A stretch of 64,000 nt of DNA from Pseudomonadota bacterium (lineage in GTDB: Bacteria > Pseudomonadota > Gammaproteobacteria > Burkholderiales > SG8-39). The position numbers were made by a program, and so were the translations under genes. Each line of letters starts with the position of its first letter. Within the stretch, counting starts at the first letter, position 1. Location of the stretch: positions 33,291 through 97,290 of the forward strand of contig JANXRZ010000223.1 in the NCBI GenBank assembly GCA_025352885.1, in the 5' to 3' direction. This document shows positions 4,718-28,330 of the stretch, one piece after another. Under the pieces are notes generated by a model. It ran no database searches. It saw only the letters and a program-made list of their open reading frames with translations, and was not told the DNA's origin.

Positions 4718-5758
4718 TCAGCGCCCGGGCGCGCGCATCTCCGGGTGCACGACGTTGCCGTCCTCGAGGATCTGCACGCCGTCGAGCGTGACGCTGCAGC
4801 CTTTCATCGGCAGGTCCATGTGACAGGGCGTGTCGTTAGTGCCGCCCAACTCGGTGTTCGGCCCGGTGGAAAACAAAACATTGCCGTAAAAGGACAGCGC
4901 GTTCATCACGTGCTCGCTGGCAAGATGCCTGGTCGAGGCGAAGTGATGCCAGTTGGCGCGCTCATTGAGCCCCCAGCCAATGTGGGACACCGCATACCCG
5001 CGCGGGTCGTTGAAGCCTTCGATGTAGCTGCGCATGAGCGTGGCGTCCATGCCCTCGCCTTCGATTGCGGTCACGTAGCCTTTCGCAATGGTGAGGCGCA
5101 CCGGCGTCTGCACATAGCGCTTGAAAGCCGCGAAGATGTCGCCGGGCATCAGCACGACCTTCCCCTCGACCGATCCGTCGTTGCCCTGGGTAAACGAGAA
5201 CCCAGAGGGGAAATGGTCCCAGCGGCCCTTCTCGAACGTGTAGCCGTACTCCGAGATCACCGGGTACTGCGAGAGCTTGTAGCGCACGTCGGTGCCGCCC
5301 TTGGACGTGATGTGCAGGTCCTTGCCTTTCATGAGCAGGGCGCGGGCGTATTCCACCCGGCGGCGCAAATCCTCGGTCGGGAACATCTGCTTCAACACGT
5401 GGAAAGGCTCCATGACGCGCAGCACGCGCGCGCCGCCGGCCTGGATCTCCGCCTGCTCGCGTGAGAACAAGAGGCCCATCATGTCGATGACGAGGTCGGC
5501 TTTCTTCAACGTATCGAGCGCAGCCTGGTTGCCGACGAGCGGGTGGCGGCCCTGGACGCCGGCGACGTTCGCCTGGTTGCGCGGCACGTTGACGTTGAAC
5601 GCCGTGGCGCCGAGGCTTTGCGCCGCCAGCATGAAGGCCTGCGCGTAATCGGCCCATTCGGCGCCCGCGGTCAGCGTGACGACGACTTCGCCCTCGTGGA
5701 CCTTGCACAATTTGAGCTCGGCCGTGAAGAGCGCAAGCATCTCCGCATCGACCGCCAT
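4718..5758 (-). CDS. nicX: 2,5-dihydroxypyridine 5,6-dioxygenase (NicX-like, aminopeptidase-T fold)
   Basis: 346 aa. Long colinear resemblance to Pseudomonas putida NicX as I remember it: GRWDHFPSGF, FNDP..Y.VSHIGWGL, NVLFSTGPNTELGG, TPCHMDLP. This includes the His/His/Asp iron ligands (SHIGWG, CHMD). Confidence 0.85.
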   Translation of the reverse strand: MAVDAEMLALFTAELKLCKVHEGEVVVTLTAGAEWADYAQAFMLAAQSLGATAFNVNVPRNQANVAGVQGRHPLVGNQAALDTLKKADLVIDMMGLLFSREQAEIQAGGARVLRVMEPFHVLKQMFPTEDLRRRVEYARALLMKGKDLHITSKGGTDVRYKLSQYPVISEYGYTFEKGRWDHFPSGFSFTQGNDGSVEGKVVLMPGDIFAAFKRYVQTPVRLTIAKGYVTAIEGEGMDATLMRSYIEGFNDPRGYAVSHIGWGLNERANWHHFASTRHLASEHVMNALSFYGNVLFSTGPNTELGGTNDTPCHMDLPMKGCSVTLDGVQILEDGNVVHPEMRAPGR

Positions 5759-6945
5759 TACAGGACTTCCCCGTTGCCATGCAGCGCTTCGAGGTAGCGG
5801 TTGATCCGGTGATGGATCACCGATTCGAACTCATGCATGGGTCCGCGCACGAAATACTTGGAGTTGAGCCCGCGCTGGATCGCGCGCACGAGGTCGGAGT
5901 CCTCGTCGGCGAATTTGCGCACGAACTTGGCGAGGATGGCCACTTTCTCATCGAACACCGGGCTGCCGACGAAGGACTTCGGCAGGCAGGTCCAGCCGGT
6001 GACGCGCGTCTTGTGGGGGCCGAGCGGATAGCAGACGAACGGCTGCACCATGTCGGCCCGCGCGAACAGGTAGAAGTTCGGGCGCAGGAAAGCCGAAAAT
6101 GCGAACTGCTTGCCTTTCGGGTGGTCCTTGAGCCAGGGCGCGGGCCCGAAGAGCAGTTCGGCGTCCGGCGCCATCGTCCCGCTGACGTATTCCTTGTACC
6201 AGCCGTACTTGGTGAACACGAGCTCGGCCAGCGCCTTCTCGGGCTTGTAGGTGCTGCCGCCGAAGGAATTCCGGTGGATGACCTCGACGTGATAGACATC
6301 GGCAAGGTTCTCCGGGACGAGCTTCCAGTTGCAGTCGAGCTCATAGCTGTACGTGTCGACCAGCACCGTGTCCTCCGGGTGCACGTAGGCGACCGATTGC
6401 CGGTAGTCGTCGGCATCGAGGTAATCGGCGAGCGGTGGCGCCTTCTCGTCGAAGTTGATGAACACGAAGCCGCCCCAGGTCTCCAGGCGGATCGGCGGCA
6501 GCTGGCGCGTTTCCGGGCCGACCTTGATGCCGCGCGGACGTGAGGGCGAAACGAGCGCGCCGTCGAGGTCGTAGACCCACGCATGGTAAGGACAGAGGAA
6601 CTCTTTCGCGTTGCCCGAGCCGATCGCAACCGCAACGCCGCGGTGCCGGCAGACATTGGCGAAAGCCTTGAGCTCCCCTTTGGCATTGCGGCAGACCACG
6701 ACCGGCTCGTCGACAAGCTCGAACGCCCTGTAATCGCCCGGGTTCGGGAATTCCTCCACGCGGCCGACGATCAGCCAGTCCTTGTAGAAGAGCTTCTGCT
6801 TCTCGAGTTCGAAGATCTCGGGCGACGTGTAGTAGTAGGCCGGCAGGTGCCTGGCCTCGGTCACCGGCGCGCGCGTCTGCCTGAGCTCTTCGATGGTGTC
6901 CGGTGCCTCGCCGTTCAAAACCGGGTGTTCGGCGCCCATTCGCAT
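5758..6945 (-). CDS. Rieske [2Fe-2S] non-heme-iron oxygenase, alpha subunit only
   Basis: 395 aa. Rieske motif CRHRG-x16-CPYHAW. Mononuclear iron motif DVYHVEVIH. AAGGAG SD upstream. The stop overlaps the nicX ATG by 1 nt (TAATG). Confidence 0.85.
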   Translation of the reverse strand: MRMGAEHPVLNGEAPDTIEELRQTRAPVTEARHLPAYYYTSPEIFELEKQKLFYKDWLIVGRVEEFPNPGDYRAFELVDEPVVVCRNAKGELKAFANVCRHRGVAVAIGSGNAKEFLCPYHAWVYDLDGALVSPSRPRGIKVGPETRQLPPIRLETWGGFVFINFDEKAPPLADYLDADDYRQSVAYVHPEDTVLVDTYSYELDCNWKLVPENLADVYHVEVIHRNSFGGSTYKPEKALAELVFTKYGWYKEYVSGTMAPDAELLFGPAPWLKDHPKGKQFAFSAFLRPNFYLFARADMVQPFVCYPLGPHKTRVTGWTCLPKSFVGSPVFDEKVAILAKFVRKFADEDSDLVRAIQRGLNSKYFVRGPMHEFESVIHHRINRYLEALHGNGEVL

Positions 6946-6954
6946 CTCCTTGAA

Positions 6955-6968
6955 ACTAAATATTTAGT
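6955..6968. promoter_or_regulatory. Perfect 14-bp palindrome ACTAAATATTTAGT (candidate operator) abutting the Rieske gene RBS
   Basis: The sequence is its own reverse complement. It lies 3 nt upstream of the AAGGAG SD of the Rieske ORF and just downstream of the predicted -10 at 6976-6981. Confidence 0.4.
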
Positions 6969-6975
6969 GTCGTTG

Positions 6976-7003
6976 ATTATCCGCCGGCACCTGGGGCTGT
7001 CAA
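6976..7003 (-). promoter_or_regulatory. Sigma70-like promoter for Rieske-nicX inside the livF/Rieske gap
   Basis: On the minus strand: TTGACA (6998-7003), a 16-nt spacer, then GATAAT (6976-6981). Confidence 0.45.
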
Positions 7004-7011
7004 CCAAACGG

Positions 7012-7728
7012 CTAGCCAAGGTAGGCCTTGCGGACGGTCTCGTTTTCCATGAGTTCGGAGGCCTTTCCTTCGAGCACCACCGTCCCCGTGCTCAGCACAT
7101 ACACGCGGTCGGACGCATGCAACGCAAGGCGCGCGTTTTGCTCGACGATGACGATCGTCATTCCTCCGCGATGCAACGCCATGAGCTTGCGATACAACTC
7201 ATGCACGACGATAGGCGCAAGGCCCAGCGACAGCTCATCCACCAGCAGCAACTTCGGGTCGCCCATGAGCGCGCGGCCGACCGCCAGCATCTGCTGCTCG
7301 CCACCCGATAACGTTTCGGCGAGTTGGGAGGCGCGCTGCTTCAGGACCGGGAACAGCGTGTAGACCGCTTCAAAGCGCTCGCGGCGTCGCTGCGCGTTCC
7401 TGCTGACCAGGTAGCCGCCCATCGCGAGGTTTTCCTCGACCGTCATGGGTCCGAAGACCTGCCGTCCTTCGGGCACCAGCGCAATGCCCCGGCGGACGAT
7501 GTCGAGCGGGGCCATCTTCGAGATGTCCACGCCTTCGAACGTCAGGCTCCCCGCTTCGCGGTCGACCAGGCCGAGGATGGACTTGAGCAGCGTCGTCTTG
7601 CCCGCGCCGTTCGCGCCGATGACGCTGACCAGCTCTCCCGGGCGCACCTCGAGATCCACGCCCTTCAGCGCGACGATCCCGCCGTAGCGGCTCTTAAGCC
7701 CGGAGATCTGCAGCAAGGCTGGATTCAT
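7012..7728 (-). CDS. livF: Branched-chain-amino-acid-type ABC transporter ATP-binding protein (LivF family)
   Basis: Walker A GANGAGKTT, signature LSGGEQQML, Walker B LLLVDELSLGLAP. The ATG at 7728 (MNPALLQISGL) is preferred over the TTG at 7734. Confidence 0.85.
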   Translation of the reverse strand: MNPALLQISGLKSRYGGIVALKGVDLEVRPGELVSVIGANGAGKTTLLKSILGLVDREAGSLTFEGVDISKMAPLDIVRRGIALVPEGRQVFGPMTVEENLAMGGYLVSRNAQRRRERFEAVYTLFPVLKQRASQLAETLSGGEQQMLAVGRALMGDPKLLLVDELSLGLAPIVVHELYRKLMALHRGGMTIVIVEQNARLALHASDRVYVLSTGTVVLEGKASELMENETVRKAYLG

Positions 7729-8485
7729 CGCCAAGGTACGCGGCCACTACGGCCGGGTCGTTCTGGATCTGCGCGGGCGTCCCTTCCGCAAGGGACTGGC
7801 CGAAGTTGAGGACGAAGATTTCATCCGAAATATCCATGATGAGTTCCATGTGGTGCTCGACGAGCAGCACCGTCACGCCACCGTCGCGGATGCGCCGGAT
7901 GAAGCTGCCGAGCTGGGAGGCCTCGCCCGAATTCAGGCCGGCCGCAGGCTCGTCCAACAGCAACAGGGAAGGCTCGGTCGCAAGCGCGCGGGCGATTTCG
8001 AGCAGCCGCTGCTTACCGAAAGGCAGGTCGCCCGCGCGATCGTGCGCGTTGCCGAGCAGGCCCACTTCATCAAGCAGGCGCGCCGCATGCGCCTCGATCT
8101 CCGACTCCTCCGAGCGCGCACGCCCGGTGCGCAGCACGGCCGAAACGAGGCCCGCGTGCGTGCGGCTGTGCCGGCCGGCCATGACGTTCTCGAGCACCGA
8201 CATGTCCGCGAAGAGCTTGAGGTTCTGGAAAGTCCGCGCGACGCCAAGGCGAACGATCCGGTAGGGCTGCAGCAGGTCGATGCGATGGCCGTCGAACCCG
8301 ACTTGTCCGGAATCGAGGCGCTCCAGGCCCGTGATCAGGTTGATGAGGGTGGTCTTGCCGGCGCCGTTCGGCCCGATGATCGCCTTGATGCACCCGCGCG
8401 GCACGCCGAAGCTCACGCCGTCCACCGCCCGCAAGCCACCGAAGGCCTTGCGGATGTCACGCACGTCGAGGAGCGTTTCGGCCAC
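7694..8485 (-). CDS. livG: Branched-chain-amino-acid-type ABC transporter ATP-binding protein (LivG family)
   Basis: GTG start at 8485, 2 nt after the livM stop. GPNGAGKTT, LPFGKQRLLEIARAL, LLLLDEPAAGLN. The 491-aa ORF in the track is an out-of-frame upstream extension over livM. Confidence 0.85.
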   Translation of the reverse strand: MAETLLDVRDIRKAFGGLRAVDGVSFGVPRGCIKAIIGPNGAGKTTLINLITGLERLDSGQVGFDGHRIDLLQPYRIVRLGVARTFQNLKLFADMSVLENVMAGRHSRTHAGLVSAVLRTGRARSEESEIEAHAARLLDEVGLLGNAHDRAGDLPFGKQRLLEIARALATEPSLLLLDEPAAGLNSGEASQLGSFIRRIRDGGVTVLLVEHHMELIMDISDEIFVLNFGQSLAEGTPAQIQNDPAVVAAYLGDESSLAADLRA

Positions 8486-8487
8486 GC

Positions 8488-9465
8488 TCAGCCCGTCTGC
8501 TTCGCGAGCATGCGCTGCCGCAGGCGGTGCTCGATGCCGCCGCCTATGCCGCGAGGCAGGAACATGACGACGAGGATGACGATGGCGCCATAGATCAGCA
8601 CGTCGTAGTCCTTCATCACGCGCAGGTATTCGGGCAGCATCGTGAGGAGGATCGCGCCCAGCAAGCCGCCCCACACGCTGCCCGACCCGCCGACGATCAC
8701 CATCACCACGATCTCGATCGACAGCGTGAAGCCGAAGCTGTCGGGGCTCAGCACCGTCACGTAATGCGCATACAGGCTCCCAGCGAGGGACGCCATGCAG
8801 GCGCCGATCATGAATATCATGACCTTGGTGGCCCACGTGTTGACGCCAACGAGCGCGGCGGCCGTCTCGTCGCCCTGGATGGCGCGCAATGACCGTCCGA
8901 CGCGTGAATCGACCAGGTGAAAGGCGAAGAGCAGCATCGCCCCCACGACCGTCCACACGAGGTAGTAATACGGAAGGTCGCTTGCGATGCGCAGCGACCC
9001 GATCCTGAATTCCGGGATGCCCACCAGGCCCGAAGGCCCGCCGGTGAGCCACGCGAGTTCCACGAACAGGATGTAAAGGATGATGCCGAAGCCGAGTGTC
9101 GCCATGCTGAGGTAGTAGCCCTGCAGGCGCAGCGCAGCGGCACCGATCAGGCCGCTGATCACCGCGCAAATGAACACTGCGGCGATCATCGCAACCCAGG
9201 GATTGAAGCCGTACTTCGTCGTGAGCACGCCCGAGGCATACGCGCCCAGCCCATAGAACCCCGCGTGACCGAGCGAGACCTGCCCCGTGTAGCCCATGAC
9301 GAGGTTGAGGCCGAGCGCGAGCAGCGCATTGATGCCCGCGAGGATGAGGATGCTCAAGTAGTACTTGGTCGGCAGCACCAGCGGGAGCAACGCAATGATG
9401 CAGAGAAACACCGCGAGCGCCGTGCGGTGCGGCAGGCGGTCTACCTGCGAGCGGCTTTTCTTCAT
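8488..9465 (-). CDS. livM: ABC transporter permease (LivM family)
   Basis: 325 aa, strongly hydrophobic multi-pass protein. Position and order match LivH-LivM-LivG-LivF. Confidence 0.8.
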   Translation of the reverse strand: MKKSRSQVDRLPHRTALAVFLCIIALLPLVLPTKYYLSILILAGINALLALGLNLVMGYTGQVSLGHAGFYGLGAYASGVLTTKYGFNPWVAMIAAVFICAVISGLIGAAALRLQGYYLSMATLGFGIILYILFVELAWLTGGPSGLVGIPEFRIGSLRIASDLPYYYLVWTVVGAMLLFAFHLVDSRVGRSLRAIQGDETAAALVGVNTWATKVMIFMIGACMASLAGSLYAHYVTVLSPDSFGFTLSIEIVVMVIVGGSGSVWGGLLGAILLTMLPEYLRVMKDYDVLIYGAIVILVVMFLPRGIGGGIEHRLRQRMLAKQTG

Positions 9466-9466
9466 C

Positions 9467-10348
9467 TCAGGCGCGGCGGCGCGCCGCTTTGCCGAGCAGC
9501 CCCTGCGGGCGCACGAGCAGGACGACGATCAGGAGCAGGAAAGCGATCGCGTCCTTGTAGGCCGACGAGATGAACCCACCGCCGAGCGACTCGAGCACGC
9601 CGAGCAGGAGGCCGCCGACGACCGCTCCCGGGCTGCTGCCCATGCCCCCGAGCACCGCGGCGCTGAAGCCCTTGAGGCCGAGCATCGTGCCGCGATCGAA
9701 CTGCGTGAGCGCCACGGGCGTGATGATGATGCCGGCCACCGCGCCGACCGCCGCAGCCAGCGCGAACGAATAGGCGGTCATGGCCTTGACGTTGATGCCC
9801 ACCAGCGTGGCCGCGAAGCGGTTGGCGGCAACCGCCCGCATGGCTTGCCCGGTCGTCGTGCGATCGAAAAACGCGTGAACCAGCACGACCACGACCATCG
9901 CCGTCCCGATGATCCACAGCGCCTGCGGCAGGAAGCTCGCGCCGAGCACCCGGATCGGCGTATCGCCCGAAAACGACGGCAGGCCGGCCGCGTCCTTGCC
10001 CCACATCAGCATGGCCGAGCCCTTGAGGAAGATCGAGCCGCCGATCGTGATGATGATCATGTTGGTGAGCGACACATGGCGCAGCGGCGCGAGCGTCAGG
10101 CGCTCGAGGAGCAGGCCGATCACGGTGACGATTGCAACGGAACCGGCAAAGGCGGCGATCATCGGCAGCCCGGCGCCGAACAGTGCGACCGCCGTCATGC
10201 CGCCGAGCATCACGAATTCGCCCTGCGCGAAGTTGATCGCCTCGGTTGCCGTGTAGACGATCGTAAAACCCAGCGCGATCAGCGCATAGATGCTGCCCAC
10301 CATGAGCCCGGAGAAAACGAACTGCAGGAGCAGGTCGGTGGTGGTCAA
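9467..10348 (-). CDS. livH: ABC transporter permease (LivH family)
   Basis: 293 aa, hydrophobic. N-terminus LLQFVFSGLMVGSIYALIALGFTIVY is typical of LivH. The TTG start overlaps the stop of the upstream 2Fe-2S subunit gene (TTGA). Confidence 0.8.
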   Translation of the reverse strand: MTTTDLLLQFVFSGLMVGSIYALIALGFTIVYTATEAINFAQGEFVMLGGMTAVALFGAGLPMIAAFAGSVAIVTVIGLLLERLTLAPLRHVSLTNMIIITIGGSIFLKGSAMLMWGKDAAGLPSFSGDTPIRVLGASFLPQALWIIGTAMVVVVLVHAFFDRTTTGQAMRAVAANRFAATLVGINVKAMTAYSFALAAAVGAVAGIIITPVALTQFDRGTMLGLKGFSAAVLGGMGSSPGAVVGGLLLGVLESLGGGFISSAYKDAIAFLLLIVVLLVRPQGLLGKAARRRA

Positions 10349-10824
10349 GGCTTGTCTCTGAGGACCCTGGCCGCCGCCTTCACGGCTTCATGAATGGACA
10401 CGTACCCCGTGCAGCGGCACAAGTTGCCGCTCAACGCCTCGCGGATCTCGTCGTCGGTCGGGTCGGGGTTCTCTTCGAGGAACGCGGTGAGGCTCATGAG
10501 GAAGCCCGGCGTGCAGAAGCCGCATTGCAGGGCGTGCGCCTCGTGAAAAGCCTGCTGCAGCGGATGCAGCGTCTTGCCGTCCGCGAGCCCTTCCACCGTG
10601 CGGATGTCGCTGCCGTCGGCCTGCACCGCGTAAAGCAGGCATGAGCGGACCGCGACGCCATCCATGTGGATCGTGCAGGCGCCGCAGACGCCCTGCTCGC
10701 AGCCGATGTGCGTGCCCTTGAGGCCCAGGGTGTCGCGCAGGAAATCGGCGAGGCTGCGCCGAGGCTCGGCACTCGCCTCAAAGTCCTTGCCGTTCACCCG
10801 CAGGCGGATTGTCCTTTCGCTCAT
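10345..10824 (-). CDS. Molybdenum hydroxylase small subunit, [2Fe-2S]-binding (CoxS/XdhC-type)
   Basis: Starts at [12 protein letters not shown]. Cys clusters [10 protein letters not shown] and CGFCTPG...CRCTGY. ATGA overlap with the FAD subunit gene. Confidence 0.9.
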
Positions 10825-11696
10825 GCCGCTTCCTTTGCCCGGGCGCACGCCGTGCGCAGCGCGCGCACGACAAGAACGCCCGCCACTTCCTTGCGATACG
10901 TCGACGATGCATGCAGGTCGTCGCTCGGCTCGAGCGTGGACGCGATCTCCTGGCCAAGCGCTTCGAAGGCCTTGTCCGCCGGCATCGAGCCGACCAAGCG
11001 CTTTGCAAAGCTTGCCGCATCGAACGGGAAGGGCCCCACGCCGCCAAGCGCCAGCCTTGCCTCCGCAATGGTGCCGGCGGCAGAGAGCGTCACCTGCGCC
11101 CCGACCGCCACGAGCGCGAAATCGCCGTGCCTGCGGCTGACTTCGGCGAACTCGGCCCCGGTGCGCGCCGGCGCCACCGGGAACCGCACTTCGACAAGGA
11201 TCTCGTCCTCGGCGAGCGCCGTCGTGAGCAGGCCGACAAAGAATTTCGCCGCCGGGATCAGGCGCTCGCCGCGCGGGCTGCGAGCGACCATCGTCGCGCC
11301 CAGCGCGATCGCAACCACCGGCCATTCCGCCGCAGGGTCGGCATGCGACAGGCTGCCGCCGAGGGTGCCGCGGTTGCGAATCACAGCGTGCCCGATGCAC
11401 GGAACGGCACGCGCGATCAACGGGCAGCGTGCTTGCACGAGTCCGGATCGCTCGACGGCGCGGTGGCGCGTCATCGCGCCGATCGCAATCCCGCCGTCGC
11501 GCTCCGCGATGAAGCTGAGCGCGGCGATCCGGTTCAGGTCGACGACCACCTCGGGCCGCAGCACGCGGAAATTCGCCATGGGAACGAAGCTCTGGCCCCC
11601 GGCCAGCAGCTTGGCGCCCGTGCTGTGCTTGCCGAGCAAGGCAATCGCTTCATCGAGCGATTGGGGCGCGTAATAGTCGAAGGCGGCCGGTTTCAT
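10821..11696 (-). CDS. Molybdenum hydroxylase medium subunit, FAD-binding (CoxM-type)
   Basis: 291 aa. MKPAAFDYYAPQSLDEAIALL...LLAGGQSFVP is the typical FAD_binding_5 N-terminus. ATGA overlaps on both sides. Confidence 0.9.
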   Translation of the reverse strand: MKPAAFDYYAPQSLDEAIALLGKHSTGAKLLAGGQSFVPMANFRVLRPEVVVDLNRIAALSFIAERDGGIAIGAMTRHRAVERSGLVQARCPLIARAVPCIGHAVIRNRGTLGGSLSHADPAAEWPVVAIALGATMVARSPRGERLIPAAKFFVGLLTTALAEDEILVEVRFPVAPARTGAEFAEVSRRHGDFALVAVGAQVTLSAAGTIAEARLALGGVGPFPFDAASFAKRLVGSMPADKAFEALGQEIASTLEPSDDLHASSTYRKEVAGVLVVRALRTACARAKEAA

Positions 11697-14023
11697 TGGG
11701 TCGGCGTGTGGGACTGGGCGCGCAGCAGGTCGCGCAGCCGGTTGTGGGTCAGCGGCAGGGTGGTGATCTCGACCCCGAGCGGGGCGAGCGCATCGGCCAC
11801 CGCGTTCGACATGACGGCCGCCGCCGGGACAATGCCCCCTTCACCCGCGCCCTTGGCGCCGAGCGGATTGAGCTTCGAGGGATAGTCCTCGAGCAGGCGC
11901 ACGACGACTTCCTGCGGCAGTTCGCTCGCGGTCGGCACGAGGTAATCCATGAACGTCGTGGTGAGCAGCTGGCCCTGCTCGTCGAACACGAGTTCCTCCA
12001 TGAGCGCACCGCCGATTCCTTGCGCCATCGCGCCCACCAGTTGGCCCGTGACGATCTGCGGATTGATCGGACGGCCGACGTCCGAGGCAATGACGTACTT
12101 GAGAACCTTGACGGCGCCGGTCGCCGTGTCCACCTCTACGGCTGCAGCGGCGGTACCGAACGCATAAGTGGTTTGCGGCTGCCTGAAGGTGTGGGTCACG
12201 TCGAGCCCGCCTTCGAGTCCCGGCGGAAGCGGCGGGCCCGAAGCCACCGTGCGCGCCACCTGCTCGAGCGTGATCGACAGTTCGGGCTGGTCTTCCACGA
12301 AGATGCGCCCTTCGTCGAACACCAGCTTTTCCTTGGGCGTTTCCAGCCGCCATCCGGCCACGGCGAGAATCTTTTCGCGCAGTTCTTTAGAGGCGACATG
12401 CACCGCGCTTCCGCCCAGCACCGCAACCCGGCTGCCCCAGGCACCGACGCCCACAGGAATCACCGACGTATCGCCCCGGCTCACGGTTATGTCGTCGAAC
12501 GCGACACCGAGCGCGTCTGCGCATACTTGGGCGAGGGTCGTATCGACGCCCTGCCCGACCGATGCGGCGCCGGTGTAAACCGTCACGCGGCCCGTATCGC
12601 CGAGCGCGACCCGGGCGTATTCCCAAGCGCCCAGCCCGGAAGGTTCGCAGTAGGACGCGAAGCCGACGCCGATATAAGTTCCATTTTTGCGCTGCTCCGG
12701 CTGCCGGGCGCGAATCCCGACGTAATCGATTTCCTCGAGCGCGCGTGCGAGCGCCGCGCGATAGTCGCCACCGTCATAGACCACCTCGTGGCCATATTCG
12801 TAGGTGCCCACGGCGAACGGCATCTCTTCGGCGCCGATCATGTTGATGCGGCGGATCTCCGCCGGATCCATGCCGAGCCTGGCCGCAACCAGGTTCACCG
12901 CGCGTTCGCGCACGAAACACGCTTCGTACATGCCCGGACCCCGGTAGGACCCGTGCGGCGTCTTGTTCGTCATCACGCACCGCAGCTCGAACTCGAACGC
13001 AGGAAATTTATACGGGCCCGGAAGGCTCGAGACGGTGTGCGTCGGCGCGACCAGGCCGTTGGGCCGGATGTAGGCGCCCATGTCCATCATGATGCGGTCG
13101 CGGAACGCTAGGAATTTGCCTTCTGGTGAGAAGCCGATCTCCACGTCGTGCCACTGCTGGCGCGAATGGTTCGTCGCCATGAAATGTTCCTGGCGATCCT
13201 CGATCCAGCGCACGGGCTTGCCCAGGCGCATCGCAGCCCACGGGACGAGGAAATCCTCTGGGAAGAATTCACCCCGAAAGCCAAACCCGCCACCGACGTC
13301 CGGCTCGACGTAGCGGATGCTTTCTTCCGGCAGCTTGAGCAGGCCCGCCAGCACCTGGCGGGTGCGGTGGATCATCTTCGTGGGACCCCATACGGTCAGG
13401 AGGCCGCTCACCTTGTCATGCGAGGCCAGCAGGCCCCGCGTCTCCATGGTCACCCCGGTGTGGCGGTTGGTCGCGAACGAGGCCTTCAGCCGCAGCGGTG
13501 CTTCGCGCATGGCTTTTTCGACTTCGCCCCGCGCGCCGCCGAACTGGTCGGCCACGTTATTGGCCGCCGGCTCGTGAAGGATCGAAGTGCCTGCCTCCAG
13601 CGCCTTGCGCGCATCGACGAAGGCATCGAGCGTCTCGATTTCCACGTCGATCAGCTCGAGCGCGTCCTCGGCCACATAACGGTTCGTTGCGATGACGATC
13701 GCCAGCGGCTCGCCGACATACCGCACCTTGTCGCGCGCGAGCGGCTTCTGGAAAAAGCGCACCAGCTCGGGCTTGGGAATGATGGTGGTCGGGATGCCGT
13801 CGACGTCCCCGAGATCGGCCGCCGTGTAGACGGCCGCGACACCGGGCAGTGCTCGCGCCCTGGCCGCGTCGATGCTGACGATCCGGCCATGCGCGACGGA
13901 GCTGCGCAGCACGGCCGCCTCGAGCATGCCGGGCTGCGCGAGGTCGCCGACGAAGCGGCCCTCGCCCCGCAGCAGGCGCGCATCCTCCTTGCGCCCGACA
14001 GCCCGCCCTACGTAATTCGACAA
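11693..14023 (-). CDS. Molybdenum hydroxylase large subunit, molybdopterin-binding (xanthine dehydrogenase / CoxL family)
   Basis: 776 aa, TTG start. N-terminus VGRAVGRKEDARLLRGEGRFVGD. The active-site loop region reads GSYRGPG, not the AYRCSFR of true CO dehydrogenase. Confidence 0.9.
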   Translation of the reverse strand: MSNYVGRAVGRKEDARLLRGEGRFVGDLAQPGMLEAAVLRSSVAHGRIVSIDAARARALPGVAAVYTAADLGDVDGIPTTIIPKPELVRFFQKPLARDKVRYVGEPLAIVIATNRYVAEDALELIDVEIETLDAFVDARKALEAGTSILHEPAANNVADQFGGARGEVEKAMREAPLRLKASFATNRHTGVTMETRGLLASHDKVSGLLTVWGPTKMIHRTRQVLAGLLKLPEESIRYVEPDVGGGFGFRGEFFPEDFLVPWAAMRLGKPVRWIEDRQEHFMATNHSRQQWHDVEIGFSPEGKFLAFRDRIMMDMGAYIRPNGLVAPTHTVSSLPGPYKFPAFEFELRCVMTNKTPHGSYRGPGMYEACFVRERAVNLVAARLGMDPAEIRRINMIGAEEMPFAVGTYEYGHEVVYDGGDYRAALARALEEIDYVGIRARQPEQRKNGTYIGVGFASYCEPSGLGAWEYARVALGDTGRVTVYTGAASVGQGVDTTLAQVCADALGVAFDDITVSRGDTSVIPVGVGAWGSRVAVLGGSAVHVASKELREKILAVAGWRLETPKEKLVFDEGRIFVEDQPELSITLEQVARTVASGPPLPPGLEGGLDVTHTFRQPQTTYAFGTAAAAVEVDTATGAVKVLKYVIASDVGRPINPQIVTGQLVGAMAQGIGGALMEELVFDEQGQLLTTTFMDYLVPTASELPQEVVVRLLEDYPSKLNPLGAKGAGEGGIVPAAAVMSNAVADALAPLGVEITTLPLTHNRLRDLLRAQSHTPTQ

Positions 14024-14061: not shown

Positions 14062-15204
14062 TCACTTGGTTGCGAGCTTGAACGCCGCCTTCTCCACTAC
14101 GAGCATGCGCATGCTGTCGACGAGAAAGCCGTTGTGGTCGGCAGGCGACGTGGTGTAGATGCCCGCCGCGCCCAGGTGCCCCTTGAGGTTTTCGAGTCCT
14201 GCACGGATCTTGTCCTTGTCGTCGCCCACCTTGGCCATGATCGACGTGACCGCGGAAAACGCGTCGTAGACCAGCGCGCCGAAGGGGCTCGGAGCCTTGC
14301 CGAACTTCTTCTGGAACGAATCGCGGTAATCGAGGATGAGCTTTTTCTGCGGATCGCTGTTTGGGATCTGGTCGATCACGGCGAGCTTGTAGCCGGTGAT
14401 GAACACGCCCTCGATGGCCTCGCCCGAGAGCTGGATCATGCGCTGGCTCTGGAAGGCCGTCGAATGGATCTGGATCGCGTCGAGCCCGATCTGCCGCGCG
14501 TTTTTGACGATGATTGCGCTGGCAGGCGTCGCATTCCAGACGATCACGGCTCGCGCGCCGGCGGCCTTGATGCGCGACAGCTGCGAGGTCATGTCCGAAT
14601 CGCTCGGCCCGAAAGTTTCCCACGCGGCCACCTCGAAGCCCTTGCCGGGCGCCTGGCGTTCGAGCTCTTCCTTGCCACTGACGCCGTAGCCGGTCGAATC
14701 GGCGAGCATGGCGATCTTGGTGATGTTGCGGCCCTTGAGGAACTGGAGCGCAAGCGCGACGGACTGGACGTCGGTGTTGCAGTACTGGAACACCCACTCC
14801 TTGGGCGGCTGCGAGATCTTGCCGCTCGCGGCGGGCGCGAGCTGCGGGACGCGCGCCTTTTCGGTGAAGGGAATCATGGCCAGCACGTTGCCGCTGATGC
14901 CCCCGCCAATGACCGCCGTCACGTTGTCCTGCTCGTGCAGGCGGCGCAGCGCGGCCACCGCCTTGGTTGGGTCCGAGGCATCGTCATAGATGATCATCTC
15001 GACCTTGCGCCCGTTGATGCCGCCCCTGGCATTGAGCTGTTCGGTCATGAGTTCCAGCGTGCTGCGCTGGTCCTCGCCGATGAACGAAGCGCCGCCGGTG
15101 ATCGACAGCACGGCGCCCAACTTGTACGCCTGCTGGGCGAACGCGGGCGCCGACAGGCCGAAAAGCAGTGCGAAAAACGGCAGGATGAACGTAAATCGCT
15201 TCAT
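14062..15204 (-). CDS. Periplasmic ABC substrate-binding protein (LivK / Peripla_BP_6 type)
   Basis: Start taken at MKRFTFILPFFALLFGLSAPAFAQQ (signal peptide), in frame with the 417-aa track ORF. First gene of the SBP / Mo-hydroxylase / Liv permease run. Confidence 0.8.
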   Translation of the reverse strand: MKRFTFILPFFALLFGLSAPAFAQQAYKLGAVLSITGGASFIGEDQRSTLELMTEQLNARGGINGRKVEMIIYDDASDPTKAVAALRRLHEQDNVTAVIGGGISGNVLAMIPFTEKARVPQLAPAASGKISQPPKEWVFQYCNTDVQSVALALQFLKGRNITKIAMLADSTGYGVSGKEELERQAPGKGFEVAAWETFGPSDSDMTSQLSRIKAAGARAVIVWNATPASAIIVKNARQIGLDAIQIHSTAFQSQRMIQLSGEAIEGVFITGYKLAVIDQIPNSDPQKKLILDYRDSFQKKFGKAPSPFGALVYDAFSAVTSIMAKVGDDKDKIRAGLENLKGHLGAAGIYTTSPADHNGFLVDSMRMLVVEKAAFKLATK

Positions 15205-15417
15205 GGAAATCCCCTTGGCAGGCGCTTGAGAAAAGTGACTTGAAAGTTCGCGGATCCGCCACCCGGAAGGTGGCCCGGCATACATCGAATCGCCGACACA
15301 GAATATATCGGACATCCTGCATGTCCAGCAGTTCTTCGATGCGTATATCGCCTCGATTACCTCAAGGCTTATGCAAAAAGCGAATACCGGAAGATGGCCG
15401 GGTTTCGCCGAGGTGGC

Positions 15418-16242
15418 CTAGAACTCAACGCGCAGCACCGAACCGAGCGCGGCAAGAAACCCCTCGAGGTCATCGACCTGCATCTGGTGACCGGCGTTCT
15501 GGACCGTGCGGACATCGATCGCCGGCGCGAGGGTGCGGATTTCCTCGACATCGTTATCCAAAATCACGCCGCCTTTTCCGGCACGGATGAGCGCCATGGG
15601 GATCGTGATGCGGCCGAGATCGGCGTGAAGGTCCTCCTCGTGAAAGCCGCGATGCGCCTCGATGGCTGCGCGTTCGTCACACGTGTGCAGCCATTGCGCG
15701 CGAACACGCAGAAGCGCTTCCGGCCAGGCCGGCATGCCGGGCTTGCGTAACGCAGCCTCCGCTTCCCCACGATTCGCCGCGCGGAGCAATTCGATGACGG
15801 CCGGCAAGGGCGAGGGGTACGCGCGCCGCCCGGGGCCGCTCACCGGCGGGTCCGCGAGCACGATGCGCGAGAAGTCGGCTCCGGCCTTCCGGGCCGCGCG
15901 AACCGCAATGCGCGCCCCCATCGAATGGCCGAGCACGGTTGGCTTTTCCAAGAAGAGCGCTTTTGCGAATGCGCAAAGATCCTCCGCGCACGCTTCGAGG
16001 CCGTAGTCGAGGTGCGGGCCGCTTTCGGACAGTCCCCTCCCGCGTACATCGAGGATATGCGTATCGAAGGCCTTGCCGAGGCGCTCGCCTACGAATCCCC
16101 ACAGCGCGGCCGGGCTGACGATGCCCGGAACAACGATCAGTGCAGGAAGCGAATCGCCCGCGGCATAGCGAAGGTAGTGCTGGCGGATCCCGTTGGCACG
16201 GACGTGCGCGCCATAACGGTAAACGGACGAGCCTTCGGCCAT
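15418..16242 (-). CDS. nicD: N-formylmaleamate deformylase (NicD-like alpha/beta hydrolase)
   Basis: Start MAEGSSVYRYGAHVRANGIRQHYLRY. Colinear with remembered P. putida NicD: ANGIRQHYLRY, DVRGRGLS, GHSMGAR nucleophile elbow, DPPVSGPGRRAYPS, WLHTC. The ATG overlaps the nicF stop (TAATG). Confidence 0.85.
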   Translation of the reverse strand: MAEGSSVYRYGAHVRANGIRQHYLRYAAGDSLPALIVVPGIVSPAALWGFVGERLGKAFDTHILDVRGRGLSESGPHLDYGLEACAEDLCAFAKALFLEKPTVLGHSMGARIAVRAARKAGADFSRIVLADPPVSGPGRRAYPSPLPAVIELLRAANRGEAEAALRKPGMPAWPEALLRVRAQWLHTCDERAAIEAHRGFHEEDLHADLGRITIPMALIRAGKGGVILDNDVEEIRTLAPAIDVRTVQNAGHQMQVDDLEGFLAALGSVLRVEF

Positions 16243-16934
16243 TACCCGGGCGTCCGGATCGCGCCGAGCGCCTTGATTGCGTCGGCTGTTGGCATGACGT
16301 CGGCGTACTTGCTCGCCATGTCGAAAAGGTTGACCGCGTGCGAGGCCTGCGAGCGATCGTAGACCGCGTCTTCTGGCACGAGCGCCTTGAAGTTCAAGGA
16401 GCACGCATCGACGACCGAAGCGCGCACGCACCCGCTGGTCGTGCAGCCGGTAAACACCAATGAATCGACGTGCAGGCCGATCAGGTAACTCGCGAGTTGC
16501 GTGCCGAAAAACGCGCTGGCCTGGAATTTCGGCAGGAGGATGTCGCCCTTCACCGGGGCGATCTCGCGCACGAACTCGTACCCGGCCGCGGGAATGGTCA
16601 TCACGCCCGGCACCTTGCCTGCAAAGGCCCCCCGGTCGTAAGAGGACTTGGGCGCGATATGCGGGTAGAGCACCGGCCAGCCTTTCGCGCGGAAGAATGC
16701 AACCAGCTCCGCGATGCGCGCCACCGCTTTCCAGCCGACTTCGCCGCAGCTCGTCGGGTATTCCTTGAGCGCTTCGCGGATCGGCTTCGGCTGGTGGCCG
16801 ACGGTGCGATATTGCACGTCGATCACGAGCAGCGCGGGCCTTGTCCCGATGCCGGCCGGCGTGCCAAACCCCGCAAGCCGATACGTCTCGCGGTCTGATT
16901 CGGGGATGAGCGCATCCCAGGGGCGTGCGGTCAT
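16242..16934 (-). CDS. nicF: Maleamate amidohydrolase (NicF-like, isochorismatase family)
   Basis: Start MTARPWDALIP. Isochorismatase-family catalytic elements ALLVIDVQ (Asp), LLPKFQASAFFG (Lys) and TGCTTSGCVRAS (Cys). Confidence 0.8.
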   Translation of the reverse strand: MTARPWDALIPESDRETYRLAGFGTPAGIGTRPALLVIDVQYRTVGHQPKPIREALKEYPTSCGEVGWKAVARIAELVAFFRAKGWPVLYPHIAPKSSYDRGAFAGKVPGVMTIPAAGYEFVREIAPVKGDILLPKFQASAFFGTQLASYLIGLHVDSLVFTGCTTSGCVRASVVDACSLNFKALVPEDAVYDRSQASHAVNLFDMASKYADVMPTADAIKALGAIRTPG

Positions 16935-16956
16935 GTCGGCCTCTCCCAAGAAATCG

Positions 16957-18159
16957 TTAGACGGGAACCTGCGTCGCGTCGTAATCGTAAATCCAATCGT
17001 AGCGGGCGCGGGCCTTGCCGGGGTTCCATTGCGATTCGGCGTAGCCTGCCGCGGTCTTCGGGTCCCCGAGCGCCGGATGGTGGAACGTGCGCTGCATGTC
17101 GGCCGAGCCGGCGGCAATCCGCGTGGTCCGGTCGAGCCGCGCGTCCTGGTACTTCAGCAAGGCTTCGGCCGGGTCATTGTATTTTTCGAGGCAGCGCGCG
17201 ATCACGCATGCGTCCTCGATGGCCATGTTCACGCCCTGGCCGAGGTAGGGGACCATCGAATGGCAGGCATCGCCCAGCAGGCTCACGCGCCCGACCGACC
17301 AGCGCGGCAGCGGATCGCGCACGAAAAGCCCCCACTTATGCAGCGACTCCGTGTTCTCGATGATCTCGACCACGTCCGGATGCCAGCCCTTGAAGTCGTT
17401 CACGCACTCGGCCACCGAGCCCTTCTCGGACCACGATTCGAGCCGCCAGTCGCTGCGCTCGACCTGCCCGGAAAACGTCATGAGGTCGGTCGTCTGCCAG
17501 CGTGCCGGATAGACGGTGACATGCGCGGTCGGTCCGACCCACGTGGTGGCCGTGGCCGCCGTGCGGTGATGCCCGCCCAGCCTTTCCATCGGCACGAGGC
17601 CGCGCCACGCCAGCGCATTGGTGAAGCGCCCCGGCGTCTCGCCGAAGGCCTTTTCGCGGACCTTCGAATGCAGGCCGTCCGCGCCGATCATCACGTCACC
17701 AGTTGCAGTCGTTCCGTCGGCAAAGTCGAGGCGCACCTTTTCGCCTTCCTGCGCGAAGCCGGTGCACCGCTTGTTGAGCCGTATCACGCCGGGCTTAAGG
17801 CGGTTCACCTCGTCGATCAGGATTGCGTGCAGCTGCGCGCGCAGCATGACCAGCGGGGCATGCGCGCGGGGTGAACTGCCGCGCTTGTAGAGCGTCCATT
17901 TCTGGCCGGTGTCCCACAAGCGCACCGCGCGCTCTTCCGCTTCGAGGGTCGCCGCGCGCACCTGCGGCTCCAACCCGAGCCCGAACATGACGCGTGCTCC
18001 GTTGATCGAGAGCCACAGTCCCGCGCCGACCTCCTTCAGTTCCGCCGCTTGCTCGTAGACGTCGCAATCGATCCCGCGGGCGAGCAATGAAGCTGCGGCG
18101 GCCAGGCCGCCGATGCCGGCGCCCGCGATGAGGACATAGGGACGGTTCGTGTTTGGCAT
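16957..18159 (-). CDS. nicC: 6-hydroxynicotinate 3-monooxygenase-like class A flavoprotein (NicC-like)
   Basis: 400 aa. GAGIGGL dinucleotide fold. VRLDFADGT..D..IGADGLHSKVRE and LLGDACHSMVPYLGQGVNMAIEDA closely track remembered P. putida NicC. Context is upstream of nicF-nicD. Confidence 0.8.
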   Translation of the reverse strand: MPNTNRPYVLIAGAGIGGLAAAASLLARGIDCDVYEQAAELKEVGAGLWLSINGARVMFGLGLEPQVRAATLEAEERAVRLWDTGQKWTLYKRGSSPRAHAPLVMLRAQLHAILIDEVNRLKPGVIRLNKRCTGFAQEGEKVRLDFADGTTATGDVMIGADGLHSKVREKAFGETPGRFTNALAWRGLVPMERLGGHHRTAATATTWVGPTAHVTVYPARWQTTDLMTFSGQVERSDWRLESWSEKGSVAECVNDFKGWHPDVVEIIENTESLHKWGLFVRDPLPRWSVGRVSLLGDACHSMVPYLGQGVNMAIEDACVIARCLEKYNDPAEALLKYQDARLDRTTRIAAGSADMQRTFHHPALGDPKTAAGYAESQWNPGKARARYDWIYDYDATQVPV

Positions 18160-26426: not shown

Positions 26427-27368
26427 CTAGGCCAGCAGGCTCTTGTCCACCATCGCGTGGATGCCCTTGAAGCCATCCACCAGCTGCGTCACCCGCAGAT
26501 CGCAGGCGAGGCTGCAGAAGGTATAGGCGTCTTCAGGCGCCCAGCCCTTGAGCTCGCCGAGCCACTTGATCATCTCGCGCAGCGCCTGCTTGGCCGCGTC
26601 GTCGAGGTCCGGGTCGGTGCCCATCGAGATGTAGTGCGTGGGGGTAACAGCGCGAGGAAAGGTCAGCGACTTGCCCTTGTGCAGGATGAGCTCGAAGGTC
26701 CCGCTCATCGCGGTCTCCAGCGCCATCAGGTTCACTTCGCCGTCGCCCTGCACGGCATGCCCGTCACCGGCTGAGAACAGCGCGCCGTCGGCCCAGACCG
26801 GCAGGAACAGCGTCGTGCCCGCAACCAGTTCCTTGCAATCGATATTGCCGCCGAACTCGCGCGGCTCCACTGACGACACCGCGCCATATTCCGGCCGCGG
26901 CGCCACGGCCATGATCCCGAAGAACGGTTTCAACGGAATCGTCGGGCCGAACGGCAGCTTCGCGGTCATCTTCTCGCGGTCGAGCGGGATCTGCAGGATG
27001 CGCAGTATCGGGAAATCTTCCGGCAGCGTGCCGCGCAGCGGCTTGATGCCGTTGTAGGACCAGTCGGTGCGCAGCTCGACTTTTTTGATGCGCACTTCGA
27101 GCGTGTCGCCCCTTTTCGCCCCGCGCACTGCAACGGGCCCCGTGAGGATGTGCGGCCCGAGATAGGGCTTCACCTTGTCGAGGATCGCGCGGTGCTCAGG
27201 CAGGAGGTCCGTGCGATGGCCGACTTCGCCGGGCCCGCCCGACACGCAGTTCAACGTTACGGTCTCGCCCGAGTCGATCGTGAGGTGGGGTTTGAGCTTT
27301 GCGTCGAAGAATCCCCAGTGGACATTTTCGGGCGATGCGGTGAGCGTGTGGTGTGCGGTCATGGACAT
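26427..27368 (-). CDS. Acetamidase/formamidase-family (FmdA/AmdA) amidohydrolase
   Basis: Start MSMTAHHTLTASPENVHWGFFD with GGAG SD upstream. LFSAGDGHAVQGDGEV and TGPVAVRGAKRGDTLEV are family-typical. Confidence 0.8.
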   Translation of the reverse strand: MSMTAHHTLTASPENVHWGFFDAKLKPHLTIDSGETVTLNCVSGGPGEVGHRTDLLPEHRAILDKVKPYLGPHILTGPVAVRGAKRGDTLEVRIKKVELRTDWSYNGIKPLRGTLPEDFPILRILQIPLDREKMTAKLPFGPTIPLKPFFGIMAVAPRPEYGAVSSVEPREFGGNIDCKELVAGTTLFLPVWADGALFSAGDGHAVQGDGEVNLMALETAMSGTFELILHKGKSLTFPRAVTPTHYISMGTDPDLDDAAKQALREMIKWLGELKGWAPEDAYTFCSLACDLRVTQLVDGFKGIHAMVDKSLLA

Positions 27369-27448
27369 TTTTCTCCGACTGAATTCTCTTGCGTGGATGC
27401 TACCATCGCCGCCCGCATGCAGCCTTCGATCCCAACGGACCCCCAAGC

Positions 27449-28330
27449 GTGAGCGACAAGAAAATCTATCTCGACTACGACCAGGCCGGGCTCGACGCGC
27501 AGTACAACAATCGACTGCGCTGGCCGGACTACAAGGAGCACTTCGCGAACTGGCGCAAGTGGAGCGAGGAATCCTGTGCGAAGCTTCCCTGCCATCGCGA
27601 TCTCGCCTTTGGGCCGGGCCCGATGGAGAAGCTCGACATCCTCCCGGCGGAAAAACAAAATGCAGCGATCGTCGTCTTCATCCACGGCGGTTACTGGTAT
27701 TCGCTCGACAAGGCCGACTACAGCTACGTAGCCGAAGGCCTGCGCCCGCACGGCATAATAACGGCGGTCAACAATTTCGGCCTCGCGCCGGATACGTCCA
27801 TGGACGAGATCGTTCGCCAGAATCGCGCAGCCCTCGCCTGGCTCTGGCGCAATGCGCGCACCTACGGAGCGGACCCGGATCGGATCTATGTATGCGGCCA
27901 CTCGGCCGGCGGCCACCTGGCCGTCATGCTCCTCGCGACCGACTGGCCCGCGTTCGAGCCGGGACTGCCGAAGGATCTCGTCAAAGGCGCGTGCTCCATT
28001 GGCGGGCTCTTCGACATGGAGGCGATCCGCCTGTCCTACCTGAACAAGACGTTGAAGATGAGCGAAGAGGAAGCGCGGCGAAACGAGCCGCTCTCGCAAG
28101 CCTATCCGGTGAAGGCCCCGCTTTCGCTCGTCGTGGCGATCGACGAAACCCCCGAGTACCACCGCCAGTCCGAAGCCATGGCGAAGCTCTGGAAAGGGCT
28201 CGGGTACCCTGTGGACTTGCTGGTTCCGCCGGGCGTCAACCATTTCGATGTGGTGAACCAGCTGCGCGACCCGAACTGCGAGCTCGTGAAAGTCATGCTC
28301 GCGGAAATGCGGAAAGCTTTTAAGCACTAA
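27449..28330 (+). CDS. Alpha/beta hydrolase, arylformamidase / esterase-lipase (HGG) type
   Basis: HGGYW oxyanion motif and GHSAGGHL nucleophile elbow. The start is uncertain: GTG 27449 or TTG 27389, neither with a clear SD. Confidence 0.7.
   Translation: MSDKKIYLDYDQAGLDAQYNNRLRWPDYKEHFANWRKWSEESCAKLPCHRDLAFGPGPMEKLDILPAEKQNAAIVVFIHGGYWYSLDKADYSYVAEGLRPHGIITAVNNFGLAPDTSMDEIVRQNRAALAWLWRNARTYGADPDRIYVCGHSAGGHLAVMLLATDWPAFEPGLPKDLVKGACSIGGLFDMEAIRLSYLNKTLKMSEEEARRNEPLSQAYPVKAPLSLVVAIDETPEYHRQSEAMAKLWKGLGYPVDLLVPPGVNHFDVVNQLRDPNCELVKVMLAEMRKAFKH

Follow-up and report, generated by a model that had tools for sequence, protein, structure and literature searches.

A putative alpha-only Rieske oxygenase lineage apparently dedicated to NicX-type ring-cleavage dioxygenases

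To our knowledge, all characterized routes to 2,5-dihydroxypyridine run through flavin monooxygenases (NicC, HpaM and HspB), molybdenum (Mo) dehydrogenases (HpdA), diiron enzymes (HpdABCDE), or the four-component Rieske oxygenase PicB followed by a decarboxylase. In another pathway, the alpha-only Rieske enzyme 2-oxo-1,2-dihydroquinoline 8-monooxygenase (OxoO), which has a dedicated reductase (OxoR), hydroxylates the lactam made by a Mo hydroxylase, quinoline 2-oxidoreductase, before the ring is cleaved. We analyzed a 64-kb stretch of DNA, called the window below, which lies within contig C274 of a 4.88-Mb genome (294 contigs, 99.8% complete, 5.2% contamination) and carries a gene for a Rieske oxygenase alpha subunit (protein P0001) joined to a homologue of nicX (protein P0002). 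A Rieske oxygenase that feeds the maleamate pathway is already known in PicB, besides which we found no characterized Rieske-NicX system in the literature; the new part is an alpha-only lineage that appears to be dedicated to NicX. Wired almost always to NicX, this beta-less lineage would add another, putative feed into the maleamate pathway.

In the pic cluster of Alcaligenes faecalis JQ135, PicB is the 6-hydroxypicolinate 3-monooxygenase (bioRxiv 10.1101/530550). It needs four linked genes, which encode large and small oxygenase subunits, a ferredoxin and a reductase and are 35-45% identical to BphA/HcaE/AndA-type systems; hydroxylation is para to the first hydroxyl, and the decarboxylase PicC acts next (10.1101/530550). 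The window resembles this cluster in having a Rieske oxygenase between a three-subunit Mo hydroxylase (PicA in the pic cluster) and a NicX homologue (PicD) in a setting of pyridine-carboxylate catabolism. It differs in that the oxygenase is one alpha-only gene with a Stc2/CntA-like fold, that no partners (small subunit, ferredoxin or reductase) are linked to it, and that the cluster has no PicC-like gene. PicB and P0001 are set apart here by the published description of PicB as BphA/HcaE-like. In the nic cluster of Pseudomonas putida, the 6-hydroxynicotinate 3-monooxygenase NicC makes 2,5-dihydroxypyridine for NicX after Mo-dependent 6-hydroxylation (nic pathway; PMC7910607). We propose P0001 for the same pathway position, but NicC is a single-component flavoprotein, and the loci of the P0001 clade described below are without a NicC-like gene except for the window, which has both. 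The pathway logic proposed for P0001 is also that of OxoO, but no relation between the two was detectable beyond the superfamily. The best sequence and structure matches of P0001 are the beta-less alpha3 enzymes stachydrine demethylase (Stc2, 3vca/4qur), carnitine monooxygenase (CntA, 6y8j) and GbcA. These enzymes act on quaternary amines in betaine catabolism, whereas the genomic context of P0001 is pyridine-ring cleavage.

The Rieske-NicX gene pair

The two genes of the pair are:
5758-6945, minus strand: Rieske non-heme-iron oxygenase, alpha subunit only (P0001, 395 amino acids), from Pfam, an AF2 model and alignment
4718-5758, minus strand: NicX homologue of the 2,5-dihydroxypyridine 5,6-dioxygenase type (P0002, 346 amino acids), from PDB 7cn3, E 3e-84

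P0001 contains a Rieske domain (PF00355, 1e-18) and a Ring_hydroxyl_A domain (PF00848, 5e-25) by Pfam. Its cluster motif, C99-R-H101-R-G...C118-P-Y-H121-A-W, has 16 residues between the two halves and fits CXH-X(15-17)-CXXH. The iron site consists of D216-V-Y-H219-V-E-V-I-H224 plus D349, a 2-His-1-carboxylate site with a bridging Asp. In an alignment of 55 homologues (42-79% identity), C99, H101, C118, H121, H219, H224 and D349 were invariant and the bridging D216 was retained in at least 90%. The domains and the conserved ligands bear out the original prediction that the Rieske and mononuclear-iron motifs are both intact. The AF2 model of P0001 (predicted local distance difference test score, pLDDT, 92.6) gave Stc2, CntA and 3n0q, which are beta-less alpha3 enzymes, as top fold matches, with template modeling (TM) scores of 0.72-0.79 at 23-26% identity; alpha/beta dioxygenases ranked closely behind. 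The model thus predicts that P0001 is a Rieske oxygenase alpha subunit of the beta-less alpha3 (Stc2/CntA-like) fold type. Because of this fold class, the missing beta subunit would be ordinary for P0001.

The family of P0001 was placed by hidden Markov model (HMM) scores and by searches for similar PDB sequences and folds. The best NCBIfam match was GbcA (NF058607), at 156.7 bits (cut-off 670) over residues 30-225 only, and the best PDB sequence match was CntA (E 2e-37, residues ~30-225 aligned). D216 of P0001 aligns with the Glu in the NYMECYH motif of CntA, which we take to be the bridging residue between subunits, so that P0001 has Asp where the CntA type has Glu. NdmA (E 4e-6) and NdmB (7e-4) matched P0001 over ~90-100 residues only, in the region of the Rieske domain (query 67-166). 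OxoO (1z01) was absent among 50 PDB sequence matches at E <=0.001. Judged by these comparisons of sequence, P0001 falls outside the GbcA/CntA family and outside the NdmA/B and OxoO families. The closest database proteins were only 79-80% identical, with no name or a generic one, and many more were found at 55-80%. Searches of a protein atlas returned generic Rieske names only, and cluster look-ups returned no names.

P0002 aligned with P. putida NicX (PDB 7cn3) at E 3e-84 across residues 4-341, nearly the full length, and had no Pfam or NCBIfam match. In NicX the Fe ligands are H265, S302, H318 and D320, and E177 and H189 are substrate residues (PMC7910607). P0002 keeps the equivalents of all of these. 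It has Phe at the position of H105 and Gln at that of C76, where the alignment is gapped; in P. putida NicX, H105F stays active and C76Q is inactive (PMC7910607). The same Phe replaces His105 in the NicX proteins of the homologous loci L011, L015, L091, L095-L098 and L136, and L091 NicX shares the Gln at the Cys76 position. The substrate may therefore be positioned differently in the NicX proteins of this group than in the model enzyme. At the gene junction, the TAA stop of the Rieske gene and the ATG start of nicX share base 5758. The coding strand reads GTCCTGTAATGGCG, with codons GTC CTG TAA and ATG GCG, the last A of the stop being the first base of the start. The 1-nt overlap was predicted correctly. 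The description of the genes as translationally fused was not, as the overlap represents translational coupling and gives no fusion protein.

Linkage to NicX and the proposed role of P0001

We compared gene neighborhoods with the window proteins at 160 loci taken from species-representative genomes and JGI metagenomes. These loci are the matches listed, and counts over them are lower bounds. In a tree of 149 full-length homologues among these matches, one clade of 27 members (support 100, stem 0.71) held all 12 genes linked to NicX and all 6 linked to c5, a NicX-like gene without a Pfam domain whose similarity to NicX is distant (7e-5 by BLASTP). Neither NicX nor c5 was linked to any of the 122 homologues that fall outside the clade. 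One of these two genes was located 9-160 bp downstream of most listed homologues with at least 37% identity, and of none with less than 37%. Linkage to NicX or the NicX-like gene thus defines the whole clade, which supports the earlier proposal that a Rieske hydroxylase acts just ahead of NicX. This clade-wide pairing argues that NicX receives its substrate from the Rieske enzyme, whose reaction would come immediately ahead of ring cleavage. A search for NicC-like genes was negative in the 24 best-matching loci, which cover 26 of the 27 clade members, and so was a second search in all 160 loci; among the loci listed, a NicC-like flavoprotein was present solely in the window. Therefore, the Rieske enzyme is the sole candidate at the other clade loci for forming the NicX substrate. 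No beta-subunit homologue was found beside any clade member. Genes of the maleamate pathway, namely isochorismatase-type or signature amidases and alpha/beta hydrolases, were recurrent near clade members.

The clade is widespread: its loci lie in metagenome-assembled genomes labeled Alpha-, Beta- and Gammaproteobacteria, Binatia and Acidimicrobiales, and others are of marine metagenomic origin. It is nevertheless rare in reference genomes, as 400 sampled genomes of the window's order and another 400 of its phylum contained no clade member (0/800). From its gene neighborhoods, the clade appears to be an uncharacterized Rieske lineage genomically dedicated to NicX-type ring-cleavage dioxygenases. 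It probably marks uncharacterized pyridine substrates in soil and sea.

The role that we favor for P0001, with modest confidence, is that of the catalytic alpha3-type component of a multicomponent Rieske monooxygenase that has its partners in trans and hydroxylates a pyridine or pyridone intermediate for NicX. Electrons from NAD(P)H would reach the Rieske [2Fe-2S] cluster (C99, H101, C118, H121) via redox partners encoded elsewhere, and would cross the subunit interface through D216 to the mononuclear iron (H219, H224, D349). O2 would be activated at this iron, and the pyridine or pyridone intermediate would be hydroxylated, giving 2,5-dihydroxypyridine or a closely related compound. In the window, this intermediate would most likely come from the upstream Mo hydroxylase as its 6-hydroxylated product. 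NicX, being co-translated, would cleave the unstable product of the Rieske enzyme at once, and the NicD-like and NicF-like enzymes would complete the maleamate pathway. We infer as candidate substrates 6-hydroxynicotinate (in a decarboxylating, NicC-like reaction), 2- or 3-hydroxypyridine, and 6-hydroxypicolinate (in a PicB-like reaction). The subclade with canonical NicX has no decarboxylase or flavin hydroxylase, and therefore its Rieske enzyme should give 2,5-dihydroxypyridine in one step. This step should be either decarboxylating ipso-hydroxylation of 6-hydroxynicotinate or para-hydroxylation of 2-/3-hydroxypyridine. The HAAT-type importer encoded next to the pair hints at a carboxylate substrate.

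Several observations weigh against this role. The NicC-like flavin monooxygenase in the window makes a NicC-like role of the Rieske enzyme redundant here, and the solved structures nearest to P0001 belong to enzymes that act on quaternary amines, not on rings. NicX of locus L093 has Q, D, R and Q at the equivalents of C76, L104, H105 and E177; because it differs at these substrate-contact positions, substrates may differ within the clade. Among the matches listed, dedicated redox partners were present at L093 and, as a ferredoxin only, at L021, and at no further clade loci, a statement that rests on few loci since only L091-L094 are close relatives among these matches. The genome of the window encodes no Reductase_C-type ferredoxin reductase that could serve its orphan Rieske ferredoxin on contig C203. 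No clade member has been characterized, and no paper on the clade was found in the literature.

Electron supply and alternative readings

Redox partners were searched for genome-wide with NAD_binding_1, Reductase_C, Fer2 and Ring_hydroxyl_B (PF00866), and by tblastn with a ferredoxin reductase and Rieske ferredoxins. The 64-kb window contained no beta subunit, FNR-type reductase, glutathione-reductase-type ferredoxin reductase or ferredoxin, its only Fer2 matches being two CoxS genes, and contig C274 had no PF00866 match. The absence of a reductase, ferredoxin and small subunit from the window, noticed in the original prediction, was thus confirmed by these searches. The whole genome had 21 Rieske-domain matches, 8 beta subunits and six NAD_binding_1 proteins. 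One of these six adjoins a Rieske oxygenase, a paralogue on contig C186, and about 20 other Rieske genes have no linked reductase. Since Rieske genes of this genome usually have no reductase linked to them, there is no reason to invoke an unusual electron donor. Four Fer2+FNR reductases were found, of which those on contigs C144 and C195 are unlinked to any oxygenase. An orphan Rieske ferredoxin of the naphthalene/biphenyl-dioxygenase type (112 amino acids) is encoded at C203:23746-24084, and contig C203 has no Rieske oxygenase. This ferredoxin gene is divergent from an Amidohydro_2 gene (non-oxidative decarboxylase family) and stands next to a TctC gene and two FAD_binding_2 flavoprotein genes (C203:22502-24084; L171:8503-10085). 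With about 20 Rieske and 8 beta-subunit genes, four Fer2+FNR reductases and no Reductase_C protein, the oxygenases must share redox partners extensively or use partners of an unrecognized type. The genome-wide search for an unlinked reductase, which the original prediction had proposed, yielded the orphan ferredoxin and the unlinked C144 and C195 reductases as candidate partners only. Weak "ferredoxin reductase" matches to a lipoamide dehydrogenase-like protein, a glutathione-reductase-like protein, a membrane-anchored disulfide reductase and NirB were rejected as partners.

At L093 (74% identity), a ferredoxin reductase gene (Pyr_redox_2+Reductase_C) is divergent from the Rieske gene, which begins the operon Rieske-NicX-solute-binding protein-LivHMGF-isochorismatase-hydrolase-Rieske ferredoxin-GntR; the Rieske ferredoxin of this operon has 104 amino acids. 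These two partners indicate that at least one close relative uses a classical chain of three components. At L021, a Rieske ferredoxin was found nearby. Tblastn with the six FNR-type proteins of the window's genome gave a match near four homologues only, all of them distant and outside the clade. The genes for the electron donor of P0001 are most likely encoded elsewhere in the genome and not replaced by the Mo hydroxylase. This agrees with the general point that Rieske oxygenases often depend on shared redox partners encoded elsewhere. At two marine loci, L098:6342-13047 and L136:8386-12932, the genes around the Rieske-NicX pair encode a PNPOx-like FMN-binding protein, an EamA transporter and a small NAD(P)H-binding protein (NAD_binding_10). 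An FeS partner was absent from these two loci, and their PNPOx-like and NAD_binding_10 proteins might be unconventional reductants.

The following features upstream of the pair bear on the question of a direct donor:
6955-6968, no strand: perfect 14-bp palindrome ACTAAATATTTAGT, between the promoter-like site and the ribosome-binding site
6976-7003, minus strand: sigma-70-like promoter TTGACA-16-GATAAT (11/12), within the 66-nt gap upstream of the Rieske gene
7012-10348, minus strand: HAAT/Liv-type ABC importer with LivF (7012-7734), LivG (7694-~8490), LivM (8488-9465) and LivH (9467-10348), by Pfam ABC_tran, BCA_ABC_TP_C and BPD_transp_2
10345-14023, minus strand: three-subunit Mo hydroxylase with CoxS (~10345-10830), CoxM (10821-11696) and CoxL (11693-14023)

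By Pfam, CoxS carries two [2Fe-2S] clusters (Fer2/Fer2_2), CoxM binds FAD (FAD_binding_5/CO_deh_flav_C) and CoxL is the Mo subunit (MoCoBD_1/2). The subunits scored under every NCBIfam equivalog cut-off. The original prediction had regarded this Mo hydroxylase as adjacent to the Rieske gene and as the sole FeS/FAD electron-transfer protein nearby. The second part held in that the only Fer2 matches are the two CoxS genes. The adjacency did not, since four ABC-transporter genes (7012-10348) and the 66-nt gap intervene.

It had also been speculated that electrons released by Mo-dependent hydroxylation pass through the FeS clusters of CoxS and the FAD of CoxM directly to the Rieske cluster, without an NAD(P)H reductase. 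If true, two consecutive ring hydroxylations, water-derived and then O2-derived, would be redox-neutral and need no NAD(P)H; the stoichiometry of two electrons released and two consumed would match. Mo hydroxylase genes were in fact enriched within 10 kb of clade members among the matches listed (10/27 vs. 4/122 outside), but the enrichment is equally explained by consecutive pathway steps. The flanks of the 27 clade genes, searched out to 10 kb, contained no FNR-type reductase, which would suit such a transfer, but nearly all other Rieske genes of the genome are also without a linked reductase. L093 can be read both ways: the sole locus with a dedicated ferredoxin reductase and ferredoxin has no Mo hydroxylase on its 14-kb contig, yet it shows that a classical reductase-ferredoxin chain occurs in the clade. 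Neither Cox genes nor partners were present at L098 (10 kb on each side), at L136 (10 kb upstream, 3.5 kb downstream) or on the short contig of L095 (6.7 kb). In the window, a separate promoter-like site precedes the Rieske-nicX pair and 3.4 kb lie between the pair and coxS; in L091 the Rieske gene is divergent from the cox operon. CoxS, CoxM and CoxL are ordinary in size and domains, and we know of no precedent for direct electron transfer from a Mo hydroxylase to a Rieske oxygenase. Given the L093 chain, the three loci without Cox genes, the separate promoter-like site and the rarity of linked reductases in this genome, electron supply through CoxS and CoxM is not supported, and we regard it as highly improbable.

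Two other reactions were considered. The enzyme could strip the N-methyl group from an N-methylpyridinium carboxylate of the trigonelline/homarine type, or from an N-methylpyridone, much as Stc2 and GbcA demethylate betaines, and so feed the route through the Mo hydroxylase, the NicC-like enzyme and NicX. N-methyl betaines such as trigonelline and homarine are common in marine settings, and some clade loci are from marine metagenomes. The best matches by NCBIfam (GbcA), PDB sequence (CntA) and fold (Stc2, CntA and 3n0q) fit a demethylase, the nearest structures being those of enzymes that demethylate quaternary amines at N or cleave their C-N bonds, but the GbcA score is 157 bits against 670 and covers residues 30-225 only, identity to Stc2 and CntA is just 23-26%, and the bridging Glu of CntA is Asp in P0001. 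The window already holds a full nic-type set (Mo hydroxylase, NicC-like, NicX, NicD-like and NicF-like), beside which the Rieske enzyme looks like an additional step at the start of the route, and the redundancy of a NicC-like role here keeps N-demethylation alive. However, the near-obligate adjacency to NicX and the absence of NicC at other loci are better explained by a step immediately ahead of ring cleavage than by an entry step, and the neighbors scanned included no gene linked to folate or to formaldehyde handling. N-demethylation therefore seems unlikely. Alternatively, P0001 could 3-hydroxylate the 6-hydroxypicolinate made by the Mo hydroxylase, and an unlinked Amidohydro_2 decarboxylase would give 2,5-dihydroxypyridine. 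The order PicA (Mo)-PicB (Rieske)-PicC (Amidohydro_2)-PicD (NicX-like) is an established picolinate route (10.1101/530550), and Amidohydro_2 genes are present beside the c5-type clade members L012, L015 and L016. In contrast, the window cluster has no Amidohydro_2 gene, and a search with the L012 protein found none in the canonical-NicX subclade (L091, L093, L095-L098, L136 and L011). The Amidohydro_2 gene divergent from the orphan ferredoxin on C203 has gamma-resorcylate and 5-carboxyvanillate decarboxylases as best PDB matches, but it is only distantly related to known decarboxylases (E ~1e-14). PicB itself has four linked components, with alpha and beta subunits, and is related to BphA/HcaE, whereas P0001 is alpha-only and Stc2/CntA-like. 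We consider this picolinate-type reaction quite unlikely, and hydroxylation immediately ahead of NicX remains our preferred role for P0001.

Other genes of the window and related loci

The remaining genes of the cluster are:
14062-15315, minus strand: periplasmic solute-binding protein of the importer (Peripla_BP_6, Pfam 1.2e-58; 85% identical in L091)
15418-16431, minus strand: NicD-like alpha/beta hydrolase (Pfam)
~16242-17012, minus strand: NicF-like isochorismatase-family amidohydrolase (Pfam; 55-62% identical to the isochorismatase genes of L091 and L093)
16957-18159, minus strand: NicC-like FAD monooxygenase (Pfam; best match 3-hydroxybenzoate 6-monooxygenase, below cut-off)

The order on the minus strand is NicC-like, NicF-like, NicD-like, a 213-nt spacer, solute-binding protein, CoxL-CoxM-CoxS, LivH-LivM-LivG-LivF, the 66-nt gap, Rieske and NicX. 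A second Mo hydroxylase with a CoxG-like subunit is divergent from 18222. The window also has, at 26427-28330, an FmdA/AmdA-type formamidase gene divergent from a BD-FAE/Abhydrolase_3 hydrolase gene, whose product is 37% identical to the hydrolase of the L093 Rieske-NicX operon. This hydrolase might be an alternative N-formylmaleamate deformylase. L091 (80% identity) keeps the window's operon of solute-binding protein, CoxLMS, LivH/LivM/LivF and NicX. The Liv comparison covered LivF, LivM and LivH, which are 84-93% identical and syntenic in L091.

The promoter-like match in the 66-nt gap was found once, against 0.3 expected in shuffled sequences. Palindrome ACTAAATATTTAGT is unique in the 4.88-Mb genome at <=1 mismatch, so no second copy flagged a co-regulated reductase genome-wide; it is a possible operator. 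At three related loci, a motif GTCGACAGAT(A/T)(A/G)TATA is present just upstream of the Rieske gene (L091:9950-10000, L092:700-730 and L093:2835-2860). A GntR-FCD regulator gene is found in the L091 and L093 loci, the L092 locus being short. The genome of the window had no convincing copy of GTCGACAGAT(A/T)(A/G)TATA, and in the window palindrome ACTAAATATTTAGT takes its place ahead of the Rieske gene. At 15292-15307 of the window, near the start of the binding-protein gene, there is a degenerate copy, GCCGACACAGAATATA.

In part of the clade, the gene that immediately follows the Rieske gene encodes a c5 protein (~345 amino acids, 26% identity to the C-terminal half of NicX) in place of NicX, and c5 genes are often found together with Amidohydro_2, amidase and alpha/beta hydrolase genes. 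Genes for c5 are located at:
L012:7056-8117
L016:11165-12208
L021:11136-12182
L022:11131-12159
L024:11098-12126

The genome of the window contains further NicX paralogues. One, 35% identical to P0002, belongs to a second, unrelated Rieske and NicX-like module on the 5-kb contig C74:
L178:2146-5145, minus strand: alpha/beta hydrolase, NicX paralogue, Rieske oxygenase with a LigXa-type C-terminal domain, 171-amino-acid open reading frame, ODP/metallo-beta-lactamase-like protein

The third NicX protein, 34% identical, is encoded on contig C279 (L179:2701-7216, minus strand); its operon also contains genes for an alpha/beta hydrolase, an acyl-CoA-dehydrogenase-like protein and an AMP-binding ligase.

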